DNA of 64,000 bases from Dictyostelium discoideum. Its lineage: Eukaryota. Position 1 is the stretch's first letter, and every line of letters starts with the position of its first letter. A model generated the notes under the pieces. That model saw only the letters and a program-made list of their open reading frames with translations. It did no database searches and was not told the origin of the DNA. The position numbers were made by a program, and so were the translations under genes. This document shows, in pieces, positions 1,189-27,834 of this stretch. The stretch lies in NCBI GenBank assembly GCA_000004695.1, contig CM000153.2, forward strand, positions 5,312,001-5,376,000, in the 5' to 3' direction.

Positions 1189-1680
1189 TTAATCTCTTGA
1201 TGTTGGGGCAAAAGAATCTGGGAAAAAGTTTTTGAATATTCCTTGCAAAGATGGAGTACTTTGGGCCATTTTTAAATATGCACTTGGGTCAAAATATTCT
1301 TTAATTGCACAAATTTTACCATCTTCATTAACAGATATGATGAATGCATATTCATTAGAATATTCCTTTGTCATTCCGAATCCCATTGATACAGTTTTAC
1401 CAACAACTAACATAATTCTTCTTTCATGGTCAATAATTTGATCAATAAGAGTCATTGAATATTTGTCATAACCATTTTGAAGAGTTTGGAATCCATCTAA
1501 TCTTTTTTGAATAGAATCAGAACCAGCAAATGGGTAAACATTTTTATCACCAGATACCCACCATTGATCTGTTTCTGTGTTATTAAATAGTTTAGATTTA
1601 TTTTCATAATCTTTATTGTTAAAAAATTGAATAAATGCATTGGGAATTTCACATAGTGTTAGTTTTTTATTATTCTCCAT
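1189..1680 (-). CDS. NTF2/SnoaL-like small protein, paralog 2 of 3 (163 aa)
   Basis: Intact ORF; the C-terminal DGKICAIKEYFDPS-type motif is characteristic of the NTF2-like/SnoaL/ketosteroid-isomerase-like superfamily; family assignment is by eye only. Confidence 0.5.
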   Translation of the reverse strand: MENNKKLTLCEIPNAFIQFFNNKDYENKSKLFNNTETDQWWVSGDKNVYPFAGSDSIQKRLDGFQTLQNGYDKYSMTLIDQIIDHERRIMLVVGKTVSMGFGMTKEYSNEYAFIISVNEDGKICAIKEYFDPSAYLKMAQSTPSLQGIFKNFFPDSFAPTSRD

Positions 1681-2329: not shown

Positions 2330-2800
2330 TTAAACTTTGTGATACAATTCTGTTAATTTTTTATTACTTAAAGAATACTTTAAAATTTCACTTGGATCAA
2401 AATATTCTTTAATTAAACAAATTTTTCCATCATTATTTACTGTTAAAAAGAAAGCATATTCATTTATGTAGATATTGTCTCCATAACCAACTGCACTTGT
2501 TCTTGCTTCCATAATTATTAAATTTTTTTCAATATTAAATGTTTTGTTTGATTCTGTAAATGAAAATTGATCATAACCATGAATTAATGGGATCATGTCG
2601 TTTAATCTTTTTTGAATTGGTTTCCAACCTGAAAATGGGTACATATTTTCATCTCCAGACATCCACCATTGGTCTGATTCTGGGTTATTAAAAATTTGGG
2701 ATATTAATTCTAAATTGTTAAATTCTCTATTATTAAAAAATTGAACAAATGAATCTGCAACTCTATTAAGTCTCAAAATGTTGTTTTCTTTACTTTCCAT
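2330..2800 (-). CDS. NTF2/SnoaL-like small protein, paralog 3 of 3 (156 aa)
   Basis: Intact ORF collinear with paralogs 1 and 2 ([48 protein letters not shown]). Confidence 0.5.
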   Translation of the reverse strand: MESKENNILRLNRVADSFVQFFNNREFNNLELISQIFNNPESDQWWMSGDENMYPFSGWKPIQKRLNDMIPLIHGYDQFSFTESNKTFNIEKNLIIMEARTSAVGYGDNIYINEYAFFLTVNNDGKICLIKEYFDPSEILKYSLSNKKLTELYHKV

Positions 2801-3240: not shown

Positions 3241-4431
3241 TCATTTATTATAATAATTATTTAGTGAGTTTATAAGCATTTCATTTGTAATTATATTTTC
3301 AATTGAATCAGATTTAGAACAATGATTTGATTCCGAAATTGATTTATTTGATAATAATAAAAGTTGTGAGAAAGAATTTTGATATCTTGTATATTCAATT
3401 TGAATTGGTAATAGCTTAATACAAGATTGGAAATTTGAAGATTGAATTAATGAAAACCATTCAATATATTCAACTTTTTCACAATTGAATTGTGATCCTA
3501 ATATATTATTAATATTCTCAATTTGTAATGGTTTTTCAACTCCAATATTGATAATATTAAAGCAACGATGTTGTTCTTGTATGTAGCTTTCAATATTAAT
3601 TAGACAATTTGAAATTGTTGTTGATAATGATGAAATTGGGGATGTTAAAAATGAGAATTCTATATTTGGATATGACTTGATTTCAATACATGATTGTAGA
3701 TATAATTGAACATAATCATTTGGATTTGAGAAAATTGAAGGGGTTCTTAATATAATTGTATTCAAATTGAATTTATCAGAAGCTTGTTTTAATAAATGTT
3801 CAGAGACTGCTTTAATTTGTAATGAACCATTTGAAAGTTGAGAAATTTTATCAACTGGTATTAAGGTTTCAAAATCTACAGTACTACTACTATTATTTCT
3901 ACCTAAATTAACATATAATGAAGATATCATTAAAATTTCTTTTATACCATTAGTGATTGAAAATTTAATAATTTCCTTTACAGTTTCGATTTTATATGAT
4001 TCATTTATATAGGTTGAATTTGTTGATTCTACTGCATCACTATCTTGATTAATAATTATTGAATTTACATTATTTGAAAGTATATTCAATTCATCAATTG
4101 GTAAACCAAAGTTATTCTTTGATGAATCACCAAAATAAACATGAATCTTTGAAATTTCAAATTCACTTAATTGTTCATAAAGTTTATATTGTTTAAAACT
4201 ATTTAAAATTTCATCATTTGAATTAATAGAATTAATTCTATCTTTTAATATATAATAAATATTTGAACAATTTGAATCTTTAACTAAATTAAATAATAAA
4301 TGAGTTCTTAAAATTCCAATTGAGCCAATTAATAAAATATTTTTGTTATTATTATCTAATTTTTGATGATGATTTTCATTGTTATTATTATTATTAATAT
4401 CTAATTTAATTTGATTCTCCCAAAATAGAAT
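3241..4431 (-). pseudogene. Detached 3' portion of the minus-strand PKS gene: C-terminal thioester-reductase (R, NAD-binding_4/SDR-type) release domain, separated from the ACP by a transposon insertion
   Basis: Reading frame open from 4431 to the stop at 3241; encodes ILFWENQIKLDINNNN..KNILLIGSIGILRTHLLFNL (TGxTGFLG-type Rossmann motif of terminal R domains). It joins in-frame to ...KYIAGGD at 7798 when the transposon plus one TSD copy is removed. Confidence 0.65.
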
Positions 4432-4436
4432 ATCAC

Positions 4437-4582
4437 TGTTGTAGGGAATTTTCCATAAAATTTCACTACAGTAGCGTAGTGAATTTTATTATTTAATTTC
4501 ACTACAGTAGCGTAGTGAAAAAAAAAAATCACTGACCTTAAATTTTTTTTTTTTTCAAAAAACAAATAAAGTTTATTAAATT
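4437..4582. repeat. Left terminal inverted repeat of the transposon (contains a twice-repeated near-palindromic TTCACTACAGTAGCGTAGTGAA motif)
   Basis: Reverse-complement match to 7652..7797 with only ~2 mismatches over 146 bp. Confidence 0.9.
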
Positions 4583-4639
4583 GAAATTTTATTTTTTGTT
4601 TTAATTATTATTTTATTTATTTTTATTATAATTATTGTT

Positions 4640-4672
<33 letters not shown>

Positions 4673-4813
4673 CAATTTTTTTTTTTTAAATTTTTTTCAA
4701 TTTTTATTTGTTTATTAAATTGTAATTTTATTTTTTGTTTTAATTATTATTTTATTTATTATTATTGTTAATTTTTTTTTTTTTTCAATTTTTTTTTTTT
4801 TAATTTATTTTTA

Positions 4814-6373
4814 TTAATTTATTTTTATTAACTCCCTGAGTTGTTCAATTGCTTGATTTACCATATCACTGTAAACACTGCACACAATTGAATTTTTTCT
4901 AGCTTTGTTACCTCTGGTGCATTTGATGTTTTTGCATTTTCCTTTGTATACAAAAAAGTCCAAATATAATTCGTTTTCTATTACAGTTTTTACACAATGT
5001 TGGTGAAATTGTTTTGATTTTAAGTGGAATGTTGGTAACATCATATTTGGATTTTTAACGATTAAAGCATCACCACTATTGACATATAGTACTTTGGGGG
5101 CTTTTTGGAGGAATTTAGTCAAATTTTCCTCTGAATCTAACTAATCTTCATTGCCATATTCAATGGATAAATTTTTTAAGAGTTGTATCGAATATATTAA
5201 TTAAGCGATCATTCTTTTTTTTTGAAATTTTTTTTTAATCAGATTTAGCAATTTTTTTTTTTTATCAAGTTTTTTCAATTTTTAATAAGTAATATTTTTT
5301 TTTATTTTTAATTATTTGTGTTAACAAATGTAATTTTTTTTTATTGATTTCAACACTTTGTTTTTATTTAATAATTTCCCCATACCCCCTTCTATTAATG
5401 CAACCAAATCAAGTTCTAATTTTTGTGTCCTTGTTGACTTTGTTTTTGCAACTTTTTTTGAAGGTATCACATTAACGATTTTTCCTATTGATGGTGATTT
5501 GGAAGGTGATTTAAATGGTGATTTAAATGGTGAATTGGAAGGTGATTTAAATGGTGAATTGGAAGGTGAAATGGATGGTGATTTGGAAGGTAATTTAAAT
5601 GGTGATTTGGAAGGTGATTTAAATGGTGATTTAAATGGTGAATTGGAAGGTGAAATGGATGTTGATTTGAGAGGTGATTTGGATGTTGATTTGAGAGGTG
5701 ATTTGGATGGTTTAGAATGTGATTTTAAAGGAGGTTTATTAACAATTGGTATCTTATGAGGACGGCCTCTGAGACGTTTAACAGTTGTTACTATACCACT
5801 ACCAGATTGTGGTATAGTATATGATGGTATTATTTGCACTTGAGGTATTGGTGGTACTATTTCTTTTAAATTCATATCCTTTCTCAAACAATTCATTAAA
5901 TTTGGCGCTGTTGGATTATTATTTAAAAATGGGAGTATTTCTTCTTGTTCCATTTCATTATTGAGTTTGTGTTGAAATGGATTATCGTTAATGATAGGTG
6001 GAATATTTGATGGATTGTTAAGAGCATCTTCCAAAACCCTAAATGGATCATTTTGTGTTACCAATTGATGCAAGTTGAAATTGGATAAATCCTTACCAAG
6101 ATTTTTAATAAACTGAACCAGAAATTCAATAACTTTCCCATCATTATTTAAATAAAGACCAGAAGTAAAAGAATCAATATCTTTTTGTATGTTTGGCGAT
6201 GTTCTAAAAATATCAACTGTTGATTGTTTATAAAGAACCAACTTGTTACCTCCTACAAAACCAGAGTATAAACCTTTTTTTTGAAGGCTATTGATTCCAT
6301 CTTCCAAAAATTCAAGTTTATAAAGTTGTTTAGTGTCTTCCTGTATTACCTTATGAATTTTACACAAAATCAA
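4814..6373 (-). CDS. Additional transposon-internal ORFs (350 aa with RGRP AT-hook and SPxK repeats; 102 aa Cys-rich)
   Basis: ORFs 5321..6373 and 4814..5122 lie on the same strand as the integrase fragments inside the TIR-bounded element; function unknown. Confidence 0.35.
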
Positions 6374-6443
6374 TATTTTCTATTAGAATTAAATATAAAA
6401 TTTGTTAATTATTACTGTTTCATATATTATTAATCTTTATGTT

Positions 6444-7287
6444 TTAATTACTTACATTATTTTTTTTAATTTCTAGAAAGAGTACAGTATCACCAACTTT
6501 CAATCCCTTTGGTGGTTTTGAATTCCATTGATTTTGGTAACTTGTGAGATTTTCAAGAATAATAGCTGTTATTTCTTCTTTTGAAACATCTGAAACACCA
6601 ATTGATTGAGAGTCTTGTTCTGATTGCACATTAATAAACAAAGGTACAATACCAACAGCTTGAGATGGTGTCATTTTAATTGTTCTTGTTTTTGTATTAT
6701 TGTAATCATACAAAGCTTGTTTTAATAGTTCAGAAAGAGACCTAGAAGTACCATCAAGAAAACTAAAATTTATTTATAAATGATTAATTAATAAACATAT
6801 CGATAATTTATATTGTTCAAAATATCATACTCTTGTTGTTTTAATTTTGAGATCCTCTCCTTGATAGTTCGATTCAATCTTTCTACCATACCTTGAGTTG
6901 TTGGTGTACGAGGAGCTCCATGTGCTGACTTGGAGCCTGGAAAAAGTTTTAGGAATTCTTTTTGGACTTTGTTTTTAAATTCACGTCCATTATCGCAGTG
7001 CCATACTTTCACAGAGTTTTAATATAAAAGTTACAAAACATCATATAAAAAATGATTGATACCAAACCTTTTATTCTATTTCGTTGGCAAATGTCACACG
7101 TATCTACTGCATCAGATACAAAAGAATACAATCCCATATTATAATATTTAGTCTTGTAGTTCCCATAGGTTGCATCTCTTCCTATATGACCTTTATGCAT
7201 TTCTTCCCAGAGTGATACCATTCTATAATCATTAATTACTTCTAAACACACTTCTTTTGATATATTTCTATCTCCGCCACAATTCAT
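6444..7287 (-). pseudogene. Transposon integrase-like ORF fragments (HHCC zinc finger, DDE core second Asp and Glu, C-terminal part) split over three frames
   Basis: 7287..7009 has HKGH...CDICQRN (HHCC). 7012..6788 has WHCDNGREF...HGAPRTPTTQGMVERLNRTIKE (second D and E of DD35E). No first catalytic Asp block is found between them, so the copy is probably deleted or degenerate. Confidence 0.7.
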
Positions 7288-7651
7288 GACTTTTTTTTCA
7301 ATTCTAAATAATTTTTCTTTTCTGTTTCTGTTTTTTATTGGTCAGAATTTAAAAAATGATTGTGTTATGGTAAGGAAAAATATTTACTCATCATGTAAAA
7401 ATTTATAATTTTTATGTTTAGTATTTTCAAAATTATTATCTTCAATAAATTTTAAATAATTTATCTTGTTTCATTTTGGGAAAATGAAAATAAAAAAAAA
7501 AAAAAAAAAAAAAAAAGTTTTGTTGGGGAAAAAAAAAAAAAATTTTGGCGCAAAAAAAAAAAAAAAAAATAAAATAAAAAAAAAAAAAAATAAAATAAAA
7601 AAAAAAAAATAAAAAAACTTAAATAGAACTAATAATCAAATAAAAGATAAT

Positions 7652-7797
7652 AATTTAATAAACTTTATTTGTTTTTTGAAAAAAAAAAAAATTTAGGGTC
7701 AGTGATTTTTTTTTTTCACTACGCTACTGTAGTGAAATTAAATAATAAAATTCACTACGCTACTGTAGTGAAATTTTATTGAAAATTCCCTACAACA
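7652..7797. repeat. Right terminal inverted repeat of the transposon
   Basis: Reverse complement of 4437..4582. Confidence 0.9.
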
Positions 7798-10700
7798 ATC
7801 ACCACCTGCAATATATTTATATTCAGTTTTATCATTTGGATCATTTTTTGTTGTTGTTGTTGTTTTTGCTGTTATTGGTAATAATTTTTCATCCATTTCT
7901 TTTTTCTTTTTATCTAATGAATCATTTATAATTTGATAAACCATACCAATTGAATTTGATTGAATTTGTTGAATTGTAATAAGATGTGGAGACCATTCTT
8001 TATCGACCCAATTCTTTAATTGTACTGTAATTAATGAATCAGCACCATAGTTTATCATTTTAATATTTGTATTAATTTTTGATGGATCAATTGAAAGAAG
8101 TTCAGAAACTTTGTTTAAAAATTTATTTTTTACATTTGTTGATGATGATGATTGATTGGTATCATTTTCCATTGATATTGAATTATCAACATTAATTGGA
8201 TTTAAAATGAAATCAAATTTTTGATGAAGTTTTTGTTTAAAACTTTTGAATAATGGCCAATTGAAATTATTAACAAATGCATTGGTTGGCATATTTGGAT
8301 TTTGAATTTGTAAATCTAAAGTACCCAATAATTGATTTGGTGATATTAATTCAACACCTTGACCACCTAGTACTGCTTCAACAAGTTTATGTCTTGAAAG
8401 ATAACCTCTATCACTTACACCACCAATGTTAATTGTAAATGATGGTAATCCAATTGATTTACGATATTGTGATAACGAATCCACTACACAACATGCTGAA
8501 ACATAACTACATTGATCAAATGAACCTAATACTGAAACTACTGATGATGCTAAAATGAAATTAATAATTTTCCAATCTCTTTTAATTGATAAATTATGTA
8601 AATTAACTGCACCAAACGTTTTTGCACTATGCGAAACATTTAAACTATTCATATCAATATCTTTAAGTTTTTTATTAATTTGTAAAGCTGCAAAATGAAA
8701 TATTGAATCAATATTTGTAATTGTTGGATTATCTTTTAAAACTTGATCAATTGTTTTATTAATTAAATTCCAATTACTAATATCACATTTTTTGAAATGA
8801 TATTTAATTTTATTGTTATTATTATTATTATTATTGTTGTTGTTATAATTCATTAAAAATTCTAATTCCCATTTTAATGATGATTTTGAAAGAATAATTA
8901 TATTTTCAACAGTTGAATTATATTTTGTTATCCATTTTAAAACTTCTAAAATTAAACCAGTTTGACCTGTAACCAATACATTTTTACCAAGATTTTTAAT
9001 TTTATAATCTGATTTTAATATTGAATAATCAATCATTGATTCTTTTTCAATTAATTTATCTATGATATCAGTATCATGTGAAATTACAATTTTACCAACA
9101 TGTTTTCTTTCTTTAATTGATTCAATTGATTTTTTAATATTTGAATTTGAAAATTCTGTAATTGGTATTAAAGCATTTAAAGTTTCATTTTCAATTGATT
9201 TTGAAATTGACTGTAATAATTTCTTAATTGTTGATTTTCCAACTTTTAAAATTTCAATACTATTATAACCAATATTATATCTATATCTACTATTATCAAT
9301 AAATTCATTTGGATTTAAATGAGTAGTTGTTAAATCTACAATTCTACCTTTTGGATTTAAACATTTAAAATTTGTATCCATAAATTCACTTGATAAAGTA
9401 TTAATAATTAAATCAACACCATGAGTTTCATAACCTAATTCAATTAATTTGTTTTTAATTTGTTTTTGATAATTTGTGTCTCTTGTTGAATAAATTCCAG
9501 TAATTAAATCACCATAGGTATTAATTAGATATTGTTTCTTTTCTTCTGATCCAACTGTAACAAATATTGGTGATGAATGATTATTTGATTTTAATATTTC
9601 CAATCCTGATAATCCAACACCACCAGATCCTGAATGAATTAATACTGATTCTTCATCTCTTAAATTACCAACATCATATAAACAATAAAGTGATGTTGAA
9701 TAAACTGCTGGAATTGAAGCTGCTTGAACATGTGTAATCTTTGATGGTTTATGACATGCTAATAATGAATCAATAATAATATGAGATGATGATGTTTCAT
9801 ATGCAATACCATAAACTTGATCACCAACTTTAAATTCTTTAGATGATTTAATTCCAACACGACTTACTACACCAGAAAAATCAAAACCAATACCAGCTTC
9901 ATTTACTTTTATCATTTCATTATATTTCAAATAATCTTTATAATTTATACCAGTTGCTTTAACTTTTACTTCAATTTCATATGGTTCTAAATCAATTTGT
10001 TTTGAATTTAATTGATATTCAAAATGTTCATCTAATTTTGAAACTAATTGATCTTGTTGTTTTGATAAATCATGATATGATTCAGATTTATAAGAATTCT
10101 TTAAATTTTTTAATTCTTTTTTATACATTTCAAAATAAACAGTACCACTATTTTTTATATAAAATTCTCTTTGAATATTATTTTTTGGATTAATTAAATA
10201 ATCAATGGTTTTGAATAAATCCAAATCATTTGTTAATGAATCTTTATCAAAATCCAATGTAAATAATTGTAAAGTTGGAATTTCATCAAAGTATCTTGCT
10301 GCACCTAAAACTGATGATGATAAATAATTACTTGATTGTGAATCACATGTAATTAAAACATGAGTACATTTTGATTTTAATTCATATAATTTTTGATTAA
10401 TTTGAACATATTCAAATGTTACTGATTTAAAGTTTTCCAATGTTAATTGTTCAATTGATTTAATAAAATAAATGATTGAATTATTTGTAATTGTTGTTGA
10501 TAATTTGTAAAATTCTTCAATTGTTGATACTTTTATTATTTTACAATTATTATAATGATTTTCAAATTTATTAATTAATTGTTGTTGTTGGAGTTGTTCA
10601 TCTTGATAACAATATAAAATTACTTGATCAAATGTGTTTATTGTTTTTGGTTGTAATTTTAATGATGGTTTTTGAGCTTGAATAATAATTGATTTAATAT

Positions 10701-10803
10701 CACTATCAGATATACTTGAAGATTTAATCATTATATCAGAATTGAAATTACAATTAACCAATAAGTTTTTCAATGATTCTTTATTATTTTCATTATTTAA
10801 TAG

Positions 10804-10868
<65 letters not shown>

Positions 10869-13800
10869 CATTTATTATTAAATAACCATTTGGTGTTAAA
10901 ATTTGATAAATTTGATTTAATGAATATTCAATATCTTTTGTTAAATTTGAAATATTTGAAACAATAATTAAATCATAATATGATGGATTTAATTTTTGTT
11001 TTTCTAATAATGAATTATCAACATCTAAACCTAATGAACGATAAAGAATACTTAAATAACCCTTATCTACTTTTGATAATTCTAATTTAGCATCTTTTAA
11101 AATTGATGAATTATTATCACTCCATGTATATTCAATATCAATTTCATAATGTGGATTTTCTTCGAGTAATGAATTGATTTCATTCAATAATAAAGTTGAT
11201 TTTGATAAATTATTACCACCAAATTCTAAAATTCTAAATTCCATCTTTCTATTAATTAATGGTTTAATAGTTTCTATAACAACATTTGGAATTAATAAAC
11301 CATCATCTACTTGATTATTTTGATAAATTGATTTAAATTCTAATGGTGATTGAATTTGTGAATCTTTTGATTGAAGATATGGTGTATAAATAAAATCAGA
11401 TGGAGTTTCAATTAATAATGGATCTTTAACTGGTGTTAATGATTTAACTACCAAGTTATCAACTTCAATGATAACAGTACCATCTTCTAACATAACAACG
11501 ATAGATGAAGAGAGTAAATCATCAGATGGAGATGATTTTAAAGTTGAATAAATAAAGATACTTGAATGTTCATCTCTATTTTTTGGAATATTTGAAGCAT
11601 AATATCTTAAACCTTCAACTTTATCTGTTACAATTTTACAATTCTTTTGAATGTATAGAATAACGGTACCATGGAAACAAGCATCAATGAGTGGACAATT
11701 GAAAAATGATTGTTCATCATGAAAGTTTTCAGGTAATTCTAAGGATATTTCAGTTAATGAACAATTATCACCAATATAACATTCAACTACTTTACTAAAA
11801 ATACCATAAAAGTTTGCACCCAATTGAGTTTTCATTAGTGAATAAAATTCATCCCATGGAATTGATGATAAATTACATTTTGTTTGTTTAATATCTTGAA
11901 TATCCAATTTTTGTTTTTCTTCATGATAATTATCATTACTATTTAAGTGGAAATTAGAATTTGAAGTATTTATCCATTGATTATTCATTTCATCTTTTAA
12001 ATGAAATTGTGCTCTATATTCACTTTTACCAGTTTGATAAACATTTGTTTGTAAACATTGCCCAATACCATCGGTTAATACAAATGGTACCTTAAATTCA
12101 ATTGAATTAATTGTTAAATCTTGATTTGGATATAATTTAAATATATTATCAATATAACCTGTTCCTGGGAAATAACATTTATCAGATACATTATGACCTT
12201 TTAAATATTTGAATGCATCTTTTCCAGTATCAATTATTGTTTGATATGATTTAATAAATGGATTTGAATCTTGCATTGAATTACCGAGAATTGAAATTGG
12301 TGGTCCAATTAAATTATTTTTATGTTCAATTGATTTATTTAACCAATAATGTTGATCATCCCATTGATATAATGGTAAATTAAAATTACTAATAGCCTCA
12401 ATATTGCTATTTATATTATTAAATTGACATTTAAAATTAATATCATAAGCATCATCACAAAATAATTGTGAAATTGATTTTTGAAATTCTTCAACATCAT
12501 TCTTTTTCTTGTGAAGTGTTGAATAAACTGATATTGATTCACCATTTCTAAAGTATTGTGATTGTTTTGGAATCATTTGTTTTAAATAAAATGATAATGT
12601 TGGATGTGGTGCAATTTCAATGAATACAATATTTGAACCGATTTGATTATCTTCAATATGTTTATATAAATTTGAAATTGTTTGAGTGAATGAAACTGGT
12701 TTTGAAATATTATCAAAGAAATATTCAGAATCAAAAATAGTTGATTCATTAAATAAATTTGATGTAACTGTTGAAAATGTTGGAATAACAGGTTGACTTG
12801 ATTGAATATTTAAATTTAAAATATCATCTTTAATTATATTTTGACTACTTGTATGAAAACTTGATAAACTTCCTAACATTGCTGAGAATATTTCTTTTTC
12901 TTTTAATTCTTTTGAAATTTCATTTAAAATTTGTTCATTACCTGCGATTACAATTGATGATGGTGAATTATAACATGCAATTTCAATAGTTGGGTAACGT
13001 GACATATAGTTAGTTTTATATTCATCTGAACTAATGTTAATTGATAACATTTTACCTGACCCATTTGTTCTTATTTGTAATGTTGATCTATGATAAATTA
13101 AATAACATAATTGGTCAATATCAATCATACCTGAACAATAAGCAGTTGTTACTTCACCAAGACTATGACCCAACATAAATGATGCTTTTATACCCCAATG
13201 TTTATAAAGTTCATATAATGATACTTGAATAATTACAGTTGATGGTTGTGCCATTGTTTGTTCATGAACTGAACATTTATCACTATCTTGAATTGCTCTT
13301 AATTTCTCTAAAATTGAATATCCAAAATAATTTTTCATTTTATTATCTAGCATATCCATCGAATTTCTAAATACTTTTTCATTTTTATATAATTCTAATG
13401 CCATTGTATTATATTGTGATCCTTGACCACAAAATACAAATACAGTTATTGGATTATTATTTTTATTTGTAATTGTAATATTTGAAGAAGTACTACTTGA
13501 AGTTTGATATTTAACTTGATTTTCAACATTATTAAAATCATTCCAATCTTTTGCAACAATTACTGATCTTTGATAAAGTGATGTTGATTTATTATAAATT
13601 TGATTTTTAACAAATTCTTCAAAACTATATTGTGATTCATATTCTTTATTTTCAATAATTAATGATTGATATTTTTTTAATGATTCAACTGAATTTGCTG
13701 AAAATGGAATTAAATAATTATTTATTTTTATATTATTATGATTATGATTATGATTATGATTATTATTATGATTATTTATATTATTATTTATAGTATTATA

Positions 13801-14489
13801 ATTAAATTGAGATAATACTAAACAACAATTTGAACCAGTTGCACCAAAATTATTAACAACCATTGAAGTATTTTTAAATTTATTAAATGGAATTGGTTCA
13901 GTTACAACTTTTAAATTCCATTCTTTAAATTTAATTGCTGGATTTGGTGTTTTAAAATGAATATTTGGTGCAAAACATTTGTTTTTATACATTAAACAAC
14001 ATTTGATTAATGAAGCAATACCAGAAGCAGCTTCACAATGACCAATATTTGATTTAAATGATCCAATTAATAATGGAGTATCAGTTGAACGAGTATCTTT
14101 AAAAACTTTTGAAATACCTTCAACTTCAATTGGATCACCAGTTGGTGTACCAGTGCCATGTGCTTCAACATAATCTATATCAGATGGTTTAACAGTTCCA
14201 TTGGTTGATTGAATTGCATTTTTTAAATTTTCAGATTGTGAAATTGATGATGGTGAATAGAAATTTGATTTATCAGAATAACCAATACCATCAACATTTG
14301 CACTTGCACCATTTATTGTACAATAAATTCTATTACCATCTTTAATTGCATCTTTTAAATTCTTTAAAACCACAACACCAATACATTCACTTCTTACATA
14401 ACCATCAGCTGATGCATCAAATGATTTACATCTACCATTTGATTTACTTAATATATTCAATGAAGAATATGCTTTAAAAAAGTAAGAGT
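7738..14489 (-). CDS. Type I iterative polyketide synthase, exon 2 (KS C-part, AT, DH, ER, KR, ACP); the reading frame now runs into the transposon TIR and stops at 7738
   Basis: Motifs GHSLGE (AT), HNVSDKCYFPG (DH), HSGSGGVG (ER), [10 protein letters not shown] (KR) and YGADSL (ACP). (CAA)26 poly-Gln tract at 10803..10867. The last 23 codons (DCCREFSIKFHYSSVVNFII*) are encoded by transposon TIR sequence. Confidence 0.85.
10803..10867 (-). repeat. (CAA)n microsatellite encoding a 26-Gln tract inside the minus-strand PKS
   Basis: (TTG)21 on the plus strand; the paralogous position in the plus-strand PKS reads NEQQPNNENNENNE. Confidence 0.9.
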
Positions 14490-14566
14490 CTAATAAAATT
14501 AAAAAATTTAATTAATAAATAAATATAAAGATAAAATTAAAAAAACTATTAAAAAAAAATACATAC

Positions 14567-15230
14567 CAAGTAATATATTAACACCACCAACAATTGACAT
14601 TTTTGATTTTTTATTTTTGATTGAATCATATCCTAATGCGATTGCATTTAAAGATGATGAACATGCAGTATCTAGAGTTATTGAATTACCATGAAGATCA
14701 TAACAATAGGAGATTCTATTTGAAATCGCATGATTTAAACTTGAGAATACATTTGATTTTACTTCATTTTTATTGATATTATGATAGTCACTTTCGGTAC
14801 AACCAATGAAAACCGAAGTATCTGTACCTTTGATTGAAATTGGATCAATTAATGAATCTTCTAATGCTTCCCATGTACATTTTAATAATAATCTTTGAAT
14901 TGGGTCAATGGTTGGTGCTTCATTTGGATTAATACCAAAAAAGAGTGGATCAAATGATTTAACTTCATCCAATGGTAATAGTCCTGAATAATTATTTGCA
15001 ATTTCATGATTTTTGAAAAAGTTATCATTGAATCTTTCTGATGTTTTCACTACACCATCGAAACCATTTATTAAATTATTCCATAATGTTTGAGGTGTAT
15101 TGTTTCTTTCATTTTCAATACTTCCACTTGGTAATCTAAAGCCAACACCAACAATTGCAACTAAATTTTCTTCAACATGTTTATCATCAACTTGTAAAAT
15201 TTCTGCTTTATTTATTTTATTTTGTTTCAT
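14567..15230 (-). CDS. Same PKS, exon 1 (KS N-terminus; ATG = complement of 15228..15230). Intron 14490..14566 (77 nt, GTATGT..AG, phase 1)
   Basis: [12 protein letters not shown]...[13 protein letters not shown]...[35 protein letters not shown] then GTATGT donor. Exon 2 resumes D-SYFFKAYSSLNILSKSNGRCKSFD, parallel to the plus-strand paralog. Confidence 0.75.
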
Positions 15231-15639: not shown

Positions 15640-15702
<63 letters not shown>

Positions 15703-15780
15703 TGATTAATAGTTAAAATTACCTAAATTTAGATATCAATTACCTGTTAAATTATAAAATTCCTCGAACATCCATTATTT

Positions 15781-15837
<57 letters not shown>

Positions 15838-16049
15838 TTCCTATAAATATCTCATTATTTTTTTTTTTGATTAATAAATTGATTATATTTTAGTAATGTT
15901 TAAAATTTTAAATATTTTTTTTAAAAAAAAAAAAAAAAAAAAACAAAAATTATTCATCTTTTATTTAACAAATTTAAACATTTTAAATATTTTTTTAAAA
16001 AAAAAAAAAATTAATTTTTTTTGGATGGATTTAAAAAAAAATTTTAAAT

Positions 16050-16886
16050 TTAAAAATATTTTTTTTTTATTCTTAATAATGGAGTATTATTATTAATATT
16101 AATAATTCCATCAGTACCATTTTCATAAGAAATTTTAAAAATTCCATTTGTATAGTAATAGAAACCTTCGTCGAATTTTAAAAAAAATACAAGACCAGTT
16201 AATATATTTGAAAATTCTACGAAATAATTTGCAGAATATTTCAATTGACCAACTGAAATTGGATTTAAATTAAAAGAGAAAACATTTACAAAATCATTTA
16301 AAGAATTTGTTTTTTCTTGATATATTAAAACACCATTTTCAGTTTCACTTTCAATGATTCTATATATTTTTGTATTATTTGTTAATTTTGGAGATTGACC
16401 AATTTCATTGCCAATTTCAATTGGAAAATAACAAGATAGAAAAGTGAAACAAGCATCAACCAAGTATTTTTTATTCTTAAATTCCATTACATTGCAATAA
16501 TGAAGTCCGATATTTGGGTATACCAAATTCTCTCCACCGTCAATTGCTTTAATTAATTGAACTTTTATTCCAAATTCTTGTAATAACATACCAAATAATA
16601 TATTATGGTTTAAACAAATATTGCCAACCTCTTTCTCTATCATTGTTTCAACAATATAATCCATATCGATTGTTGGTCCATCTTTTAAAACGTCAATATT
16701 ATTATATGGAAAATGTTCTGCAAATTTCACCATTAACAATTCAAAATCATCCAAACAATTTAATTGAAAATCAATTTCTAAATTTAATTTTGGTAATATA
16801 ATTTCTTTAAAATTATATTTTTTATTTGCTAATTTTAATTCTTCATAACTGAAATGTAAAAAATAGTCTTTGTCATTAATTTCCAT
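16050..16886 (-). CDS. Arylamine N-acetyltransferase (NAT)-fold protein, 278 aa, in the spacer between the divergent PKS genes
   Basis: Catalytic-triad geometry matches NATs: Cys91 in VGNICLNHNILFG (cf. RGGYCFExN), His128 in GLHYCNV, Asp143 in YLVDACF (cf. YIVDAGFG). Cys-to-His spacing is 37 and His-to-Asp is 15, as in human and bacterial NATs. Confidence 0.65.
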   Translation of the reverse strand: MEINDKDYFLHFSYEELKLANKKYNFKEIILPKLNLEIDFQLNCLDDFELLMVKFAEHFPYNNIDVLKDGPTIDMDYIVETMIEKEVGNICLNHNILFGMLLQEFGIKVQLIKAIDGGENLVYPNIGLHYCNVMEFKNKKYLVDACFTFLSCYFPIEIGNEIGQSPKLTNNTKIYRIIESETENGVLIYQEKTNSLNDFVNVFSFNLNPISVGQLKYSANYFVEFSNILTGLVFFLKFDEGFYYYTNGIFKISYENGTDGIININNNTPLLRIKKKYF

Positions 16887-18550: not shown

Positions 18551-19238
18551 ATGGATAATAGTTATTTAAATAATCCCCAATTTGATATTAATAATGGTAA
18601 TAAAGAAGTTACAGATGATGATAATAATAAAAATAATCAAGATAATTTAGTAGCAATTGTTGGTGTTGGTTTTAGATTACCAAGTGGTGAAAATGAAAGA
18701 AATAATACACCTCAAGCATTATGGAATAATTTAATAAATGGTTTCGATGGTGTAGTGAAAACATCGGAAAGATTCAATGATAACTTTTTCAAAAATCATG
18801 AAATAGCAAATAACTATTCAGGACTATTACCATTGGATGAAGTTAAATCATTTGATCCACTCTTTTTTGGTATTACTCCTAATGAAGCACAAACTATAGA
18901 TCCTCATCAAAGATTATTATTAAAATGTACATGGGAAGCATTAGAAGATTCATTAATTGATCCAATATCAATCAAAGGTACTGATACTTCTGTTTTCATT
19001 GGCTCTTCAACAAATGATTATCTTACATTAAATAGAAATGAAGTAAAATCAAATGTGTTTGGTAGTATGGCTCATTCAATTGCAAATAGAGTATCCTATT
19101 GTTATGATCTTCATGGTAATTCAATAACTCTAGATACTGCATGTTCATCATCTTTAAATGCAATCGCATTAGGATATGATTCAATCAAAAATAAAAAATC
19201 AAAAATGTCAATTGTTGGTGGTGTTAATATATTACTTG
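18551..19238 (+). CDS. Type I iterative PKS (plus strand), exon 1; intron 19239..19324 (GTATGT..AG, phase 1)
   Basis: [10 protein letters not shown]...[20 protein letters not shown]...GGVNILL then GTATGT donor; paralogous to minus-strand exon 1. Confidence 0.8.
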
Positions 19239-19324: not shown

Positions 19325-22300
19325 ACCCATATCCATATAAGGCATTCTCAATTTTGAATATGTTAAGTAAATCAAATGGTAGATGTAAATCATTTGATGC
19401 ATCAGCTGATGGATTTGTTAGAGGTGAATGTATTGGTGTTGTTATTTTAAAGAATTTAAAAGATGCAATTAAAGATGGTAATAGAATTTATTGTACAATA
19501 AATGGTGCAAGTGCAAATGTTGATGGTATTGGTTATTCTGATAAATCAAATTTCTATTCACCATCATCAATTTCACAATCTGAAAATTTAAAAAATGCAA
19601 TTCAATCAACCAATGGAACTGTTAAACCATCTGATATAGATTATGTTGAAGCACATGGCACTGGTACACCAAATGGTGATCCTGTAGAAACCGAAGGTAT
19701 ATCAAAAGTTTTTAAAGATACTCGTTCAACTGATACTCCATTATTAATTGGATCATTTAAATCAAATATTGGTCATTGTGAAGCTGCTTCTGGTATTGCT
19801 TCATTAATCAAATGTTGTTTAATGTATAAAAATAAATGTTTTGCACCAAATATTCATTTTAAAACACCAAATCCAGCAATTAAATTTAAAGAATGGAATT
19901 TAAAAGTTGTAACTGAACCAATTCCATTTAATGAAAATAAAAATACTTCAATGATTATTAATAACTTTGGTGTTACTGGTTCAAATTGTTGTTTAGTATT
20001 ATCTCAATTTAATAATACAAATAAACAAAAACAACAAATGAAAACAAAAATAAATAATTATTTAATTCCATTTTCAGCAAATTCAGTTGAATCATTAAAA
20101 AAATATCAATCATTAATTATAAATAGTAAAGAAAATGAATTAAAATATAGTTTTGAAGAATTTGTTAAAAACCAAGTATTTATTAAACCAACATCACTTT
20201 ATCAAAGATCTGTAATTGTTGCAAAAGATTGGAATGATTTTAATAATGTTGAAAATCAAGTTAAATATCAAACTTCAAGTAGTACTTCTTCAAATATTAC
20301 AATTACAAATAAAAATAATAATCCAATAACTGTATTTGTATTTTGTGGTCAAGGATCACAATATAATACAATGGCATTAGAATTATATAAAAATGAAAAA
20401 GTATTTAGAAATTCGATGGATATGCTAGATAATAAAATGAAAAATTATTTTGGATATTCAATTTTAGAGAAATTAAGAGCAATTCAAGATAGTGATAAAC
20501 GTTCAGTTCATGAACAAACAATGGCACAACCATCAACTGTAATTATTCAAGTATCATTATATGAACTTTATAAACATTGGGGTATAAAAGCATCATTTAT
20601 GTTGGGTCATAGTCTTGGTGAAGTAACAACTGCTTATTGTTCAGGTATGATTGATATTGACCAATTATGTTATTTAATTTATCATAGATCAACATTACAA
20701 ATAAGAACAAATGGGTTAGGTAAAATGTTATCAATTAACATTAGTTCAGATGAATATAAAACTAACTATATGTCACGTTATCCAACCATTGAAATTGCAT
20801 GTTATAATTCACCATCATCAATTGTAATCGCAGGTAATGAACAAATTTTAAATGAAATTTCAAAAGAATTAAAAGAAAAAGAAATTTTCTCAGCAATGTT
20901 AGGAAGTTTATCAAGTTTTCATACAAGTAGTCAAAATATAATTAAAGATGATATTTTAAATTTAAATATCCAATCAAGTCAACCTGTTATTCCAACATTT
21001 TCAACAGTTACATCAAATTTATTTAATGAATCAACTATTTTTGATTCTGAATATTTCTTTGATAATATTTCAAAACCAGTTTCATTCACTCAAACAATTT
21101 CAAATTTATATAAACATATTGAAGATAATCAAATCGGTTCAAATATTGTATTCATTGAAATTGCACCACATCCAACATTATCATTTTATTTAAAACAAAT
21201 GATTCCAAAACAATCACAATACTTTAGAAATGGTGAATCAATATCAGTTTATTCAACACTTCATAAGAAAAAGAATGATGTTGAAGAATTTCAAAAATCA
21301 ATTTCACAATTATTTTGTGATGATGCTTATGATATTAATTTTAAATGTCAATTTAATAATATAAATAGCAATATTGAGGCTATTAGTAATTTTAATTTAC
21401 CATTATATCAATGGGATGATCAACATTATTGGTTAAATAAATCAATTGAACATAAAAATAATTTAATTGGACCACCAATTTCAATTCTCGGTAATTCAAT
21501 GCAAGATTCAAATCCATTTATTAAATCATATCAAACAATAATTGATACTGGAAAAGATGCATTCAAATATTTAAAAGGTCATAATGTATCTGATAAATGT
21601 TATTTCCCAGGTGCAGGTTATATTGATAATCTTTTAAAATTATATCCAAATCAAGATTTAACAATTAATTCAATTGAATTTAAAACACCTTTAATATTAT
21701 CAGATGATAATGGTCAATTTTTACAAACAAATGTTTATCAAACTGGTAAAAGTGATTATAGAGCTCAATTTCATTTTAAAGATAATAGAACAAATGTATG
21801 GGTTCAAACATGTACTGCTAATTTTCAATTATATAATAATGGTAAAGTTGATAAATTAAATTTAGAAGAAATTAAATCAACAAAATGTAATTTATCATCA
21901 ATACCATGGGATAAATTTTATCCACATATAAAAAATAGAACTGGTTTAAACTATAAAGACAAATTTCAAAATACAATTGAATGCTATCTTGGTGATAATT
22001 GTTCATTAACTGAAATATCATTAGAATTACCAGAAAACTTTCATGATCAAGAATCATTTTTTAATACACCAATTTTAGATATTTGCTTCCATGGTTCAAT
22101 TGTTTTAATTAAGGATAATTGTAAACTTGTTTTGGATAAAATTGATGGTTTTAAATTATATACATCAAACATTCCAAAAAATAGATTTGATCATTTAAGT
22201 ATTTTTGTATATACAACTATGAAATCAACAAAATCAAATTCATACAATTCAACATACACAGTAATGTTAGAAGATGGTACTGTTATACTTGAAGTTGAAA

Positions 22301-25300
22301 ATTTAATATGTACATCATTAACACCAGTTAAAGATCCATTATTAATTGAAATTCCAACTGATATGTATTATACTCCATATCTTCAATCAAAAGATTCACA
22401 AATTCAATCACCATTAGAATTTAAATCAATTTATCAAAACAATCAAGATAATGATAGCTTATTAATTCCAAATGTTGTTTTAGAAACAATTAAACCATTA
22501 ATTAATGAGCAAATGGAATTTAGAATTTTAGAATTTGGTGGTAATAATTTATCAAATTCAACTTTATTATTGAATTCAATCAATTCATTACTTGAAGAAA
22601 ATCCACATTATGAAATTGATATTGAATATACATGGAGTGATAATAATTCATCAATTTTAAAAGATGCTAAATTAGAATTATCAAAAGTAGATAAAGGTTA
22701 TTTAAGTATTCTTTATCGTTCATTAGGTTTAGATGTTGATAATTCATTATTAGAAAAACAAAAATTAAATCCATCATATTATGATTTAATTATTGTTTCA
22801 AATATTTCAAATTTAACAAAAGATATTAAATATTCATTAAATCAAATTTATCAAATTTTAACACCAAATGGTAATTTAATAATAAATGAACAACAACCAA
22901 ACAATGAAAATAATGAAAATAATGAAGATTCATTGAAAAACTTATTGGTTAATTGTAATTTCAATTCTGATATAATGATGAAATCTTCAAGTGTATCTGA
23001 TAGTGATATTAAATCAATTATTATTCAAGCTCAAAAACCATCATTAAAATTACAACCAAAAACAATAAACACTTTTGATCAAGTCATTTTATATTGTAAT
23101 CAAGATGAACAATTCCAACAACAACAACAATTAATTAATAAATTTGAAAGTCATTATAATAATAATTGTAAAATAATAAAAGTATCAACAATTGAAGAAT
23201 TTTATAAATTATCAACAACAATTACAAATAATTCAATCATTTATTTTATAAAATCAATTGAACAATTAACATTGGAAAACTTTAAATCAATAACATTTGA
23301 ATATGTTCAAATTAATCAAAAATTATATGAATTTAAATCAAAATGTACTCACGTTTTAATTACATATGATTCTCAATCAAGTAATTATTTATCATCATCA
23401 ATTTTAGGTGCAGCAAGATACTTTGATGAAATTCCAACTTTACAATTATTTACATTTGATTTTGATAAAGATTCATTAATTAATTTAGACATTTCGGTTA
23501 TAGATCATTTGATAGATCCAAAACAAAATACATTGATTGAATTCTTTATTAAAAAAAATGGTAAAGTTTATTTTGAAAGATTTAAAAAAGGTTTAAAGAA
23601 AAATTCTTTTAAATCAGAATCATATCATCAAATTACAAATGAACAAGAAATTTTAATTTCAAAATTAGATGAAAATTTAGATTATCAATTAAAATCAAAA
23701 GATTCAATTTTAAAACCATATGATATTGAAGTAGAAATTAAAGCAACTGGTTTAAATTATAAAGATTATTTAGTATATAGTGGTTTAATAAAATTAAAAG
23801 GTGATAGTGTTGATTTTGGTCTTGATTTTTCTGGTAGAGTTAGTCGTGTTGGAATTAAATCATCAAAAGAATTTAAAGTTGGTGATGAAGTTTATGGTAT
23901 TGGACAATCAACATCATCATCTCATATTATTATTGATTCAATGCATGCATGTCATAAACCATCAAAGATTACACATGTTCAAGCAGCTTCAATTCCAGCA
24001 GTTTATGCAACTTCAATTCATTCTTTATATAATATTGGTAATTTAAGAGAAGGAGAATCAATTTTAATTCATTCAGGATCTGGTGGTGTTGGATTATCAG
24101 CATTGGAAATATTAAAATCAAATAATCATTCATCTCCAATATTTGTTACAGTTGGATCAGAAGAAAAGAAACAATATCTAATTAATACCTATGGTAATTT
24201 AATCACTGGAATTTATTCAACAAGAGATACAAATTATCAAAAACAAATTAAAAACAAATTAATTGAATTAGGTTATGAAACTCATGGTGTTGATTTAATT
24301 ATTAATACTTTATCAAGTGAATTTATGGATAGCAATTTCAAATGTTTAAATCCAGAAGGTAGAATTGTAGATTTAACAATTACTCATTTAAATCCAAATG
24401 AATTTATTGATAATAATAAATTTAAATATAATTTTGGTTATCATAATATTGAATTATATTATTGTGAAAAGCCAACAATTAAGAAACTATTACAGTCAAT
24501 TTCAAAATCAATTGAAAATAATACATTAAATTATTTAATTCCAATTACAGAATTTTCAAATTCAAATATTAAAAAAGCAATTGAATACATTAATGAACGT
24601 AAACATGTTGGAAAAATTGTAATTTCTCATGATACAGATATTACTAATAAATTAATTGAAAATCAACCTAAAATTGATTACTCTTTATTGAAATCAAATT
24701 ATAAAATTAAAAATCTTGGTAAAAATGTATTGGTTACAGGTCAAACTGGTCTAATTTTAGATATTATAAATTGGATTATGAAATATAATTCAACTGTTGA
24801 AAATATAATTATTCTTTCAAAATCATCAATGAAATGGGAAATGGAATTTTTAATTAACAACAATAAGACAAAAATTAAATTCTATTATAAAAGATGTGAT
24901 ATTGGTGGTGATTCAGATTCAATTAATAAAACATTTGATAAATTGTTTACAGAAAATCCAACAATTACAAACATTGATTCAATATTCCATTTTGCAGTTG
25001 TACAAATTACAAGAAAAGTAAAAGATATTGATATGAAATCATTAAATATTTCACATGATGCAAAAACAATTGGTGCAATTAATTTACATAATCAATCAAT
25101 TAAAAGAGATTGGAAATTAAGTAATTTCATATTAGCATCTTCAATTCTTTCAAAAGTTGGTTCATTAGATCAATGTGGATATGTTTCAGCATGTTGTGTA
25201 CTTGACTCATTTTCAAAATATCGTTTATCTATTGGATTACCTGCATTATCAATTAATATTGGTGCTATGGGTGGAAGTGGAATGGTTGCAAGAAGTGAAC

Positions 25301-25779
25301 TTGTTGAAACTGTACTTAATGGTCAAGGTTATAATTTAACCTCAACAAACCAACTATTAGGTACAATTGATTTATTAATTCAAAATCCTGGTCAAGAATC
25401 AAATAATTTAATGGTTGGTAATTTTAATTTCCCAGTTTTTAATAATTTCAAACAAAAGATTCATCAAAAATTTGATTTTATTTTTAATGCTCTTGATTCA
25501 AACTCTGAAAATGGTGATGGTAGTAATATCAAAAATTCAACAAATATTAAAGATAAATTTTTAAACAAAGTATCAGAATTTCTTTCAATTGATTCATCTA
25601 AAATTAATAATGATATTAAATTAATGAATTATGGTGCTGATTCATTAATTACTGTTCAATTAAAGAATTGGGTTGATAAAGAATGGTCTCCAAATTTAAT
25701 TACAATTCATCAAATTCAATCAAATTCAATTGGTATGGTTTGTCAAATTATAAATGATAATTTTGAAAAAAAAAAATAA
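19325..25779 (+). CDS. Type I iterative PKS (plus strand), exon 2: KS-AT-DH-ER-KR-ACP, ending 26 residues after the ACP with no release domain (total 2380 aa)
   Basis: Same motif order as the minus-strand PKS. Ends ...LMNYGADSLITVQLKNWVDKEWSPNLITIHQIQSNSIGMVCQIINDNFEKKK*. Confidence 0.85.
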
Positions 25780-25967: not shown

Positions 25968-26337
25968 CTCACTGAGAAAATTATCAAACGTTATCAAATA
26001 AATAAGTTGATTTGATAATAACGTTTCTTTAAAGAAAAAATAATAAAAAAAAAAAAATCAATTATTATCAAATTATTAAGTTAATAAAAAGAAACGTTAG
26101 GTAACAAAATCATTCCCAAAGATATTTCAGATTTTTTTAATTCAACGAATTACAAATTTTTATTTTTTTAAATTTTTTTTTTCAATAAAAAAAAGAAAAA
26201 TCATCAAACAAAAAAACAAGATATTTTCCATGGTTTTTTTTTATTTTTTTTTTTTTTGCTTTTATATAAATAACGTTTATTTTTTTTTATTTTTTTTTAT
26301 TATTTTTTTATTTAAACTAAATAGTATAATAAAAAAA

Positions 26338-26401
26338 ATGGAACAAGAAAATAATAATAACAAAGACATAAAAACAATTGATAGTATCAATATCAATAAT
26401 G

Positions 26402-26472
<71 letters not shown>

Positions 26473-27834
26473 TTTGGTAGAAGGAACAGAAATAATAGAC
26501 CAAATGGTCAAAACCGTAGAGACTATGACGATAGAAGAAAGATTATATCTGAAAAACCAGAAAATCAACCAAGAAGTAATAATTATCATGGTAAAGGTAG
26601 AAGATACAATGATAGAAATAATTTAAATGTAGCTTCGTTGAATCAAAATGAATCCGTGGCAACTTCCAATACAACAACAACAACACCAACAACAACAACA
26701 CCAACAACAACACCAACAAACATAAATTCGAGTATAGAGAAAATTGAAAAAACTACATTATCAATAAAAGGATGGGGAGATAGATTACCAAAAATTGGAA
26801 AAACAATAACTTTTTTAAATTTTGAAAATTTAAGTATTCCAATTCCACAAGGTTATATACCAAATACAGTTACAAAAATTAAATTTGGTAGAATGTATAA
26901 TTGTGAATTATCGGTTGGTTCAATTCCAAATAGTGTTACCGATATACATTGGGGCAAAGGTGCAATTCCATTAGGAGGTGTGATACCAAATTCAGTTATA
27001 AATCTATCATTTAGTGATCAATTCTATCAAGATATAATACCAGGTAGTATTCCAAACTCTGTTAAATCAATTACCTTTGAAAATAGAATTGGTATTACTA
27101 AATTTGAAAGAGCCTATCATGGAAACCAAGTTAATAATGAAATCTCACCAAATGTTACACCAGTTTTACAAATTGGATCAATTCCATCATCAGTAACAAG
27201 TATTGAATTTGGTAGTTATAATTTTATTCCAAGTCCAGGTTTACTTCCAGATAGTATTAAATTATTGAAATTTGGTAAAGATTATACCCAAAAACTTTCA
27301 ATTGGATCAATACCAAACTCTGTAACAGATTTAGAACTTTCAAATAACAAATTCACATCAGAAATGATACCACCATCAGTAATAAATCTTTCATTTTATG
27401 AATGTTTTGGTGATTATGTTAATGTTGGCTCAATTCCAAATACAGTTAAATCAATTTCATTTGGTGCAAATTATAATAAACCAATCATTCAAGGAATGAT
27501 TCCACAATCAGTTGAAACAATAATATTTGGTAGAAATTTCAATAATACAATTTCACAAGATTCATTACCAAAAAATCTTAAAACATTAATATTTGGTAAT
27601 AGTCATAATCAAGTTTTTCAACCCAATGTATTACCACCATCATTAACAACTTTAGAATTTGGTGAAAGTCAAAGATTTAAAATTGATGAAAAATCATTAC
27701 CATCATTAAAAAACTTTAAATATAATAATAAAATATATGCTCAAGAAATTCCAAATCCGCCACCACTCCCAGAAGGTTCAGGTTATTTTTATTTGCAATT
27801 TAAACATTATAATGATAGAGGTTATAAAGATTAA
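26338..27834 (+). CDS. FNIP-repeat-containing protein (about 498 aa)
   Basis: About 12 tandem ~22-aa repeats of the form IPNSVTxLxFGxxFNQ (e.g. SIPNSVTDIHWGKGAIPLGGVIPNSVINLSFSDQF). N-terminal poly-Asn. The ORF-track start at 26230 is poly-T junk; the real ATG is at 26338. Confidence 0.8.

Follow-up and report, generated by a model that had tools for sequence, protein, structure and literature searches.

A conserved reductase-like domain lacking the catalytic tyrosine is separated from its polyketide synthase by a TDD-4/5-type transposon in Dictyostelium discoideum

The window analysed here is a stretch of 64,000 nucleotides of Dictyostelium discoideum DNA (GCA_000004695.1, contig CM000153.2, positions 5,312,001 to 5,376,000), with a G+C content of about 20%. 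On its minus strand, the segment 3241-4431 is open in one frame, resembles the reductase (R) domains that terminate some polyketide synthases (PKSs), and lies 3.4 kb away from an open reading frame (ORF; 7738-14460) that encodes an acyl carrier protein domain (ACP). The locus thus raises the question of whether this segment is the last domain of the adjacent PKS, by which event it was detached, and whether it would release a polyketide as an aldehyde or an alcohol, as proposed by an earlier interpretation made without database searches (the sequence-only reading). As shown below, the segment encodes the R-like C-terminus, with the fold of terminal thioester reductases, of a D. discoideum PKS, and a TDD-4/5-type insertion severed this conserved domain, which lacks the catalytic tyrosine. 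We consider it probable that the domain is no NAD(P)H-dependent thioester reductase and acts on the ACP-bound thioester in a non-redox manner.

The detached segment and the interrupted gene

Read from 4431 to 3241, the segment comprises 396 codons without any in-frame stop and ends with a TGA codon (3241-3243), exactly at the coordinates assigned by the sequence-only reading. When its bases were shuffled 20,000 times, the mean number of stops was 37.5 and the minimum was 16, and the remaining five frames of the segment carry 22 to 70 stops. No in-frame ATG, GTG or TTG is present upstream of 4089 and the first methionine of the translation is found at about residue 169, so that the complete domain is not translatable from the orphan segment.

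The sequence-only reading had assigned the segment to the short-chain dehydrogenase/reductase (SDR) or NAD_binding_4 type and had named two hidden Markov models (HMMs) for a check. The profile PF07993 (NAD_binding_4) matches the segment with 63.7 bits (E = 2e-17), above its gathering score of 20.1. The thioester reductase profile TIGR01746 is matched over positions 1-364 of 371 with 78.2 bits, below the curated cutoff of 213.35; since the canonical R domains of dictyostelids, with 161-174 bits, are also found below this value, the cutoff alone is not decisive and it is the twofold deficit in score that is informative. The AlphaFold2 (AF2) model of the segment (pLDDT 84.2, pTM 0.85) displays a Rossmann subdomain and a C-terminal substrate subdomain, as in R domains. 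Comparison of this model with the PDB by Foldseek gave 4U7W, 8V1X, 4DQV and 5MSU as top matches (TM 0.65-0.72, E values down to 3e-16), and the best matches are all terminal reductase domains (MxaA 4U7W, 8V1X, 4DQV and the R domains of carboxylic acid reductases). A search by sequence for solved structures recovered a single match, the terminal R domain of the myxalamid synthase MxaA (4U7W). The assignment as an R-domain homologue is upheld by these results.

Searches of protein collections were less informative. A word-indexed search with the segment retrieved nothing at E <= 1e-5, apparently swamped by low-complexity words, and missed P0003, a PKS fragment of D. citrinum with a canonical R domain that aligns to the segment at E = 9e-34. 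An index-free search of the protein library detected no relative above 36% identity. As an orthologue with 96% identity exists in the NCBI assemblies, the lack of a close match in this library is not evidence of absence.

A DNA transposon of 3,361 bp (4437-7797, minus strand) lies between the segment and the ACP-encoding frame, which accounts for the detachment noticed by the sequence-only reading. It is bordered by the two copies of a 5-bp target-site duplication (TSD), ATCAC on the plus strand, at 4432-4436 (GTGAT on the minus strand) and at 7798-7802. Its terminal inverted repeats (TIRs; 4437-4705 and 7529-7797) extend over 269 nt with 84% identity, and their first 124 nt contain two differences. 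The termini are TGTTG, and within the window the terminal 47-mer is found at both ends of the element only. The integrase H2C2 domain is detected above its cutoff (34-36 bits), and rve_3 reaches 25.1 bits against a cutoff of 26.5, with part of the core covered.

TDD-4 and TDD-5 were described with a 5-bp TSD, TIRs of 260-297 bp, TGTNR ends and a length of about 3.8 kb (PMC2836005). By its hallmarks the window element is of this type (Ginger2/Tdd): it has in common with them the 5-bp TSD, inverted repeats of about 270 bp, the TGTNR termini, a gypsy-integrase-like H2C2 finger with a putative, partial rve core, and a coding region divided into several short open segments. It is however about 480 bp shorter, and its DDE core is partial; because of this length (3.36 kb compared to 3.8 kb) and of the incomplete DDE core, the sequence is probably that of an internally deleted copy. 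The ORF 5321-6373 (minus strand, 350 aa) of the transposon has no Pfam match and contains a long Ser/Pro/Lys repeat with units SKSPLKS and SNSPFKSP.

Excision of the transposon together with one TSD copy joins both parts of the PKS into a single ORF, and the offset of 5 bases is unique, offsets of 0, 3, 4 or 6 bases giving no restoration of the frame. In the restored gene, exon 1 (14567-15230, minus strand, start codon ATG at 15228-15230) encodes the N-terminal part of KS and is followed by a GT..AG intron of 77 nt (14490-14566), the removal of which reproduces the annotated product of 2,848 aa. The 5' part of exon 2 (7798-14489, minus strand) encodes, according to the Pfam domains, the C-terminal part of KS, then AT-DH-MT-ER-KR-ACP and the ACP-R linker, and the detached 3' part (3241-4431, minus strand) encodes the R-like domain and the stop codon. 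The intact product is thus composed of KS-AT-DH-MT-ER-KR-ACP-R-like, with the ACP serine at residue 2373 and the R-like domain at residues 2453-2848. The insertion point is located in the linker, between the codons GGD|ILFW. In the window allele, the reading frame passes from the PKS into the repeat of the transposon, where 19 foreign codons (CCREFSIKFHYSSVVNFII) precede a stop (7738-7797, minus strand); the product is truncated to 2,471 aa and the R-like domain is absent from it.

The empty site was found in the chromosome of GCA_054883475.1 (locus L001), retrieved via a neighbouring protein of 156 aa. This locus aligns to window positions 16206-7798 and 4436-1 in two blocks that share exactly 5 bp of L001, which therefore holds one copy of the TSD. 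Its annotated gene of 2,848 aa is the window gene minus the transposon, identical at 8,624 of 8,624 nucleotides. From the single TSD copy and the identity of the gene, it follows that the insertion is polymorphic and very recent. Four further loci were retrieved via orthologues of the neighbour gene, two from D. discoideum (ACTFIW, L005, and ACTFIR, L006), one from D. cf. discoideum (ACTFIZ, L007) and one from D. citrinum (ACTFIV, L008). The transposon is absent from all of them as from L001, and the PKS is uninterrupted, which gives five intact orthologous genes of 2,829-2,852 aa. In these intact alleles the R-like domain directly follows the carrier domain in one polypeptide, a link that is broken in the window allele. 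The segment therefore belonged, before the insertion, to the iterative PKS of the minus strand, as the sequence-only reading had supposed from the sequence of the interrupted allele.

Splicing of the transposon as a very long intron, with a full-length protein still being made, can be drawn on paper in 12 in-frame GT..AG combinations spanning the element. The intron would need about 3.4 kb, whereas the genuine introns here measure 77-101 nt, and the donors are not of the GTATGT type of the real introns. Moreover, 10 of the 12 combinations delete the conserved start ILFWENQIKLD, and the other two swap its first residues for transposon-derived sequence. We regard this explanation as hardly credible.

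The interrupted gene and the paralogue pks25 on the plus strand diverge head-to-head from the interval 15.2-18.6 kb. Since pks24 and pks25 have been published as likely acting in one pathway and sharing a promoter region, this arrangement fits the published statement and the interrupted gene would be pks24. An exact look-up of the 2,471-aa product in the protein collection did not find it, and the name pks24 is thus not confirmed; the same look-up for the 2,848-aa product found nothing either.

Within the PKS, the MT region (residues about 1338-1471 of the 2,848 aa; window about 10.1-10.2 kb, minus strand) scores under the Pfam cutoffs and contains about 23 consecutive glutamines. It displays the highest ratio of non-synonymous to synonymous substitution rates (dN/dS) of all domains, 0.38-0.63. 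Judging from its sequence, this MT may be inactive.

Active-site residues and selection

The segment was aligned with 131 relatives recovered by the index-free HMMER search (position numbers are those of the segment). The sequence-only reading had taken NILLIGSIGILRTHLL as matching the signature TGxTGFLG. This was correct for Gly36 (Gly in 131/131 relatives), Gly39 (130/131) and Leu41 (Leu in 107/131), and not for the other four of the seven specified positions: T35I (Thr in 120/131), T38I (Thr in 107/131), F40I (Phe in 105/131) and G42R (Gly in 128/131). The motif (4306-4329, minus strand) reads IGSIGILR, and VGSMGMLR in D. citrinum. The glycine-rich NAD(P)H motif TGxxGxxG is consequently absent from the segment, its third Gly being Arg and both Thr being Ile. 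Other conserved residues are changed as well. The Arg of strand beta2, present in 129 of the 131 relatives, is Lys (R63K); the H-x-x-A motif (His in 85% and Ala in 89% of relatives) is modified by H129Q and A132D; Tyr140 and the Asn of the NV-GT motif (Asn147), each conserved in 92% of relatives, are replaced by Thr (Y140T) and Lys (N147K), respectively.

The Ser/Thr-Tyr-Lys triad is incomplete. Ser170 (129/131) and Lys207 (130/131) are present, and position 203, which is Tyr in 129 of the 131 relatives, is occupied by Ser (Y203S), the segment having SLQIK (3811-3825, minus strand) in place of the catalytic YxxxK. This replacement of Tyr by Ser is seen independently in the alignments to MxaA 4U7W and to P0003, and these alignments place no Tyr within or near the SxxxK region of the segment. 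Among the 34 columns conserved at 80% or more, 20 are kept in the segment, compared to 31 in the median relative. Among full-length proteins, P0004 and P0010 (both KS-AT-MT-ER-KR-ACP-R) are the nearest relatives; they reach 170 and 159 bits with PF07993, against 64 for the segment, and 168 and 174 bits with TIGR01746, against 78. The closest sequence relatives are dictyostelid-like in composition, and one of them, P0004, shares 53% identity with the interrupted PKS from KS to ACP and 38% in R.

The release of an aldehyde or an alcohol put forward by the sequence-only reading is not supported, in view of Ser at position 203, Arg at the third glycine, Lys at the beta2 Arg and the changes of HxxA, Tyr140 and Asn147. 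The loss of the tyrosine and of the cofactor residues, taken with the published requirement for this tyrosine and with the existence of non-reducing R* domains, makes reductive release unlikely, and the R-like domain is, from its sequence, probably redox-inactive. The alternative of a functional thioester reductase (TR), which would use NAD(P)H in an unusual active site and produce an aldehyde or an alcohol, for example through a relocated tyrosine in SSLYV or with NADH instead of NADPH, nevertheless has to be weighed. The HMM matches and the fold are those of R domains and the closest relatives carry canonical TR domains, but the stretch that replaces the cofactor-contact motif HxxA is the sole part of the AF2 model under pLDDT 50. 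The segment has retained GxxG, the residue at the Ser/Thr position and Lys, whereas the tyrosine of nearly all relatives is Ser with no Tyr in the SxxxK region, and the third Gly, the beta2 Arg, HxxA, Tyr140 and Asn147 are lost. Activity with specificity for NADH was found for an apicomplexan TR whose triad is atypical, but the atypical apicomplexan TRs still keep the tyrosine, which is critical in all characterised TR domains (bioRxiv 10.1101/2023.05.23.541938). Purifying selection (see below) shows that the domain does something. On this evidence, a working reductase appears unlikely.

The variant motifs are not a peculiarity of the window allele. The motifs L(I/V)GS(I/M)G(I/M)LR, ILKDR, INQDSD and NGSLQIK are common to L005-L008, and NGSLQIK is invariant in the five orthologues; the changes are thus fixed in three species whose orthologues are uninterrupted. 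A decay of the motifs after the insertion was considered as their origin and rejected, as the intact L001 allele is identical and the orthologues have the same motifs. In L007, the poly-Asn tract that immediately precedes the Rossmann strand exceeds those of the other orthologues by about 25-30 residues; it represents a low-complexity linker of variable length.

The dN/dS values of the R-like domain and of the rest of the PKS were calculated by the Nei-Gojobori method, and the p values were obtained with a Fisher test against equal non-synonymous and synonymous rates in the R-like domain. Between D. discoideum and D. citrinum, the values are 0.21 [0.14-0.31] for the R-like domain and 0.19 for the rest of the PKS (p = 9e-17). 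They are 0.16 [0.11-0.23] and 0.19 between D. cf. discoideum and D. citrinum (p = 5e-23), and 0.34 and 0.26 between D. discoideum and D. cf. discoideum (p = 1e-4). The R-like domains of D. discoideum and D. citrinum share 84% amino-acid identity at a dS of about 0.38, and no stop interrupts the frame in any of the six alleles examined. Purifying selection acts on the R-like domain throughout the D. discoideum / D. citrinum group; with dN/dS values like those of the rest of the PKS, the domain is maintained, variant residues included, with the same strength as the catalytic domains. Compared to its nearest canonical relative, its divergence has been only moderately faster than that of the PKS body, the ratio of identity in R to identity in the body being 0.71 with this relative and 0.79-0.84 between canonical pairs.

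These values bear directly on the idea of a functionless relic, already dispensable and decaying, whose motifs would have changed by neutral drift. The hallmark motifs are indeed degenerate, but the variant motifs are themselves conserved. The segment is orphaned in the window genome, but its frame remains open in six alleles where about 37 stops per 396 codons would be expected. The paralogue pks25 has no R domain and yet is kept at 2,380-2,390 aa in several strains; against this, the dN/dS of 0.16-0.34 equals that of the catalytic domains, and so high an identity to D. citrinum has been retained at the dS given above. The selection analysis largely refutes the relic, which we hold to be very improbable.

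The reading that we favour, a non-redox role of the severed domain, can be formulated as follows. A cut-and-paste transposon of TDD-4/5 type inserted very recently in the ACP-R linker and duplicated 5 bp. The PKS has since then ended 19 codons into the transposon, leaving the R-like segment orphaned and devoid of a start codon. In the intact enzyme, the R-like domain would not reduce the thioester and would act non-reductively on or around the ACP-bound chain. Its role might be the release or cyclisation of the chain, as for fungal R* domains, or ACP docking or a hand-over in a pathway shared by Pks24 and Pks25. Several points weigh against this proposal. GxxG, the Ser/Thr position, Lys207, Asp102 and Arg229 are kept, and some nucleotide binding is possible; the Tyr found three residues after the catalytic Ser (SSLYV, kept in the orthologues) might conceivably act as a substitute; and the known R* chemistry needs a beta-ketoacyl-aminoacyl substrate from a nonribosomal peptide synthetase (NRPS) module, which is absent here. 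In addition, the name pks24 rests on the literature context and on the length of the UniProt entry for pks24, which is presumably 2,471 aa.

The paralogue pks25 and the neighbouring genes

The plus-strand paralogue pks25 (DDB_G0287095; exons 18551-19238 and 19325-25779) has the Pfam domains KS-AT-DH-MT-ER-KR-ACP and no R domain. When spliced at the homologous donor, it gives a product of 2,380 aa that coincides exactly with Q54KU3 ("Probable polyketide synthase 25"), whose cluster mates in other strains have 2,384-2,390 aa. The identity to the interrupted PKS amounts to 80.7% and continues as far as the final residue of Pks25, the stop codon being found just after the ACP. A search of the 64-kb window by tblastn recovered no R-like segment besides 3241-4431. 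The absence of an R domain from the paralogue, noted by the sequence-only reading, is thereby established. A relic R domain downstream of pks25 was also considered and rejected, as the DNA homology of the paralogues ends at the pks25 stop codon and tblastn gave no match. As the truncated allele is left with the domain set of Pks25, it may still build its chain and release it differently.

The identity between the two paralogues is a mosaic, with 98-100% at residues about 600-1000 (AT region) and 60-70% in other blocks of 100 residues. This pattern suggests a recent gene conversion between the inverted PKS duplicates.

The differences between the window and L001 are confined to 15676-16162. They consist of 18 substitutions and a 1-nt gap at 16013-16162, one further substitution at 15839, and two differences in the length of poly-T tracts. 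The cluster at 16013-16162 surrounds the 3' end of an N-acetyltransferase ORF, of 278 aa in the window and 291 aa in L001; the 278-aa product was not found by exact look-up in the protein collection. Either genuine variation or an erroneous sequence in one of the assemblies could account for these differences.

Just downstream of the interrupted PKS is a tandem array of three small ORFs, with products of 156, 163 and 162 aa (window 1189-1680 and 2330-2800, minus strand; L001 10001-12918). The 156-aa ORF (2330-2800, minus strand), annotated as UPF0523 protein C, corresponds exactly to DDB_G0287093 of strain AX4. After the small ORFs, L001 and L005-L007 contain a P450 gene and an epimerase-family gene, and L008 contains the P450 gene and no called epimerase-family gene. 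Together, the small ORFs, the P450 and the epimerase may constitute a biosynthetic neighbourhood. Directly after pks25 are found a gene for an FNIP-repeat protein (26230-27834, plus strand) and an ORF of the histidine-phosphatase family (27911-28579, minus strand).

Comparison with known offloading domains

Among the 40 PKSs of D. discoideum, offloading enzymes have been described for 21, namely two chalcone synthases and 19 that are "most likely" TRs (PMC12828403). C-terminal TRs on Dictyostelium PKSs being already described, the headline of the sequence-only reading is not new. The literature that we searched contains no report of the R-like domain in the intact alleles, of the truncation of the window allele by a transposon, or of a conserved variant without the tyrosine. 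The gene model derived from the window genome, with 2,471 aa and no offloading domain, is that of a transposon-truncated allele, and other strains and sister species encode the 2,848-aa enzyme; the count and the models of the offloading domains of Dictyostelium PKSs change accordingly. This has to be considered when pks24 phenotypes or metabolomes are compared between laboratory strains, metabolomic features that depend on pks24/pks25 having been published (PMC12625978). Since not one nucleotide of the 8.6-kb gene distinguishes the interrupted from the intact allele, the pair forms a natural experiment whose only variable is the presence of the R-like domain. A domain with neither the tyrosine nor the cofactor motif that evolves as slowly as KS or AT is a candidate for non-reductive chain release, a question that also concerns the many orphan amoebal PKSs.

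The R-like domain shares with the terminal TR domains (PF07993/TIGR01746; MxaA 4U7W and the Streptomyces coelicolor PKS TR 8V1X) the fold, the layout in two subdomains and the position directly after a carrier domain. It differs from them by Ser instead of Tyr, Lys instead of Asn, the sequence IGSIGILR, the beta2 Lys and the loss of the HxxA/Tyr motif. Compared to the canonical R domains of dictyostelids, its HMM scores are under half.

The R* domain of CpaS, a fungal PKS-NRPS hybrid, has Leu in place of Tyr, is non-reducing and releases its product without NADPH (Liu and Walsh 2009, as summarised in PMC3202784). Like it, the window domain has the R fold, a replaced tyrosine and a kept GxxG, and it is conserved and not decayed. 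Catalytic residues of CpaS are Asp D3803 and His H3843. The differences are that Tyr is changed into Ser in the window domain instead of Leu, that the cofactor motif is more degenerate, and that the host enzyme is a highly reducing PKS in which the domain comes after the ACP, so that neither a C-A-T module nor a substrate for a tetramate-forming Dieckmann reaction is available. Given that the NRPS module is absent, we do not file the domain as a member of R*. More tentatively, it could be the first amoebozoan counterpart of R*, a catalyst that releases or cyclises the chain of a highly reducing PKS without NRPS and needs no cofactor to do so, maybe via Ser170, Ser203 and Lys207, although we give this possibility rather low credence; in that case, a natural knockout of the R-like domain alone, caused by a transposon, would be present in the reference-type genome, beside an isogenic intact allele. 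The conservation of the domain, as opposed to its decay, would imply a non-reductive task at the carrier-bound thioester, as in the R* domains.

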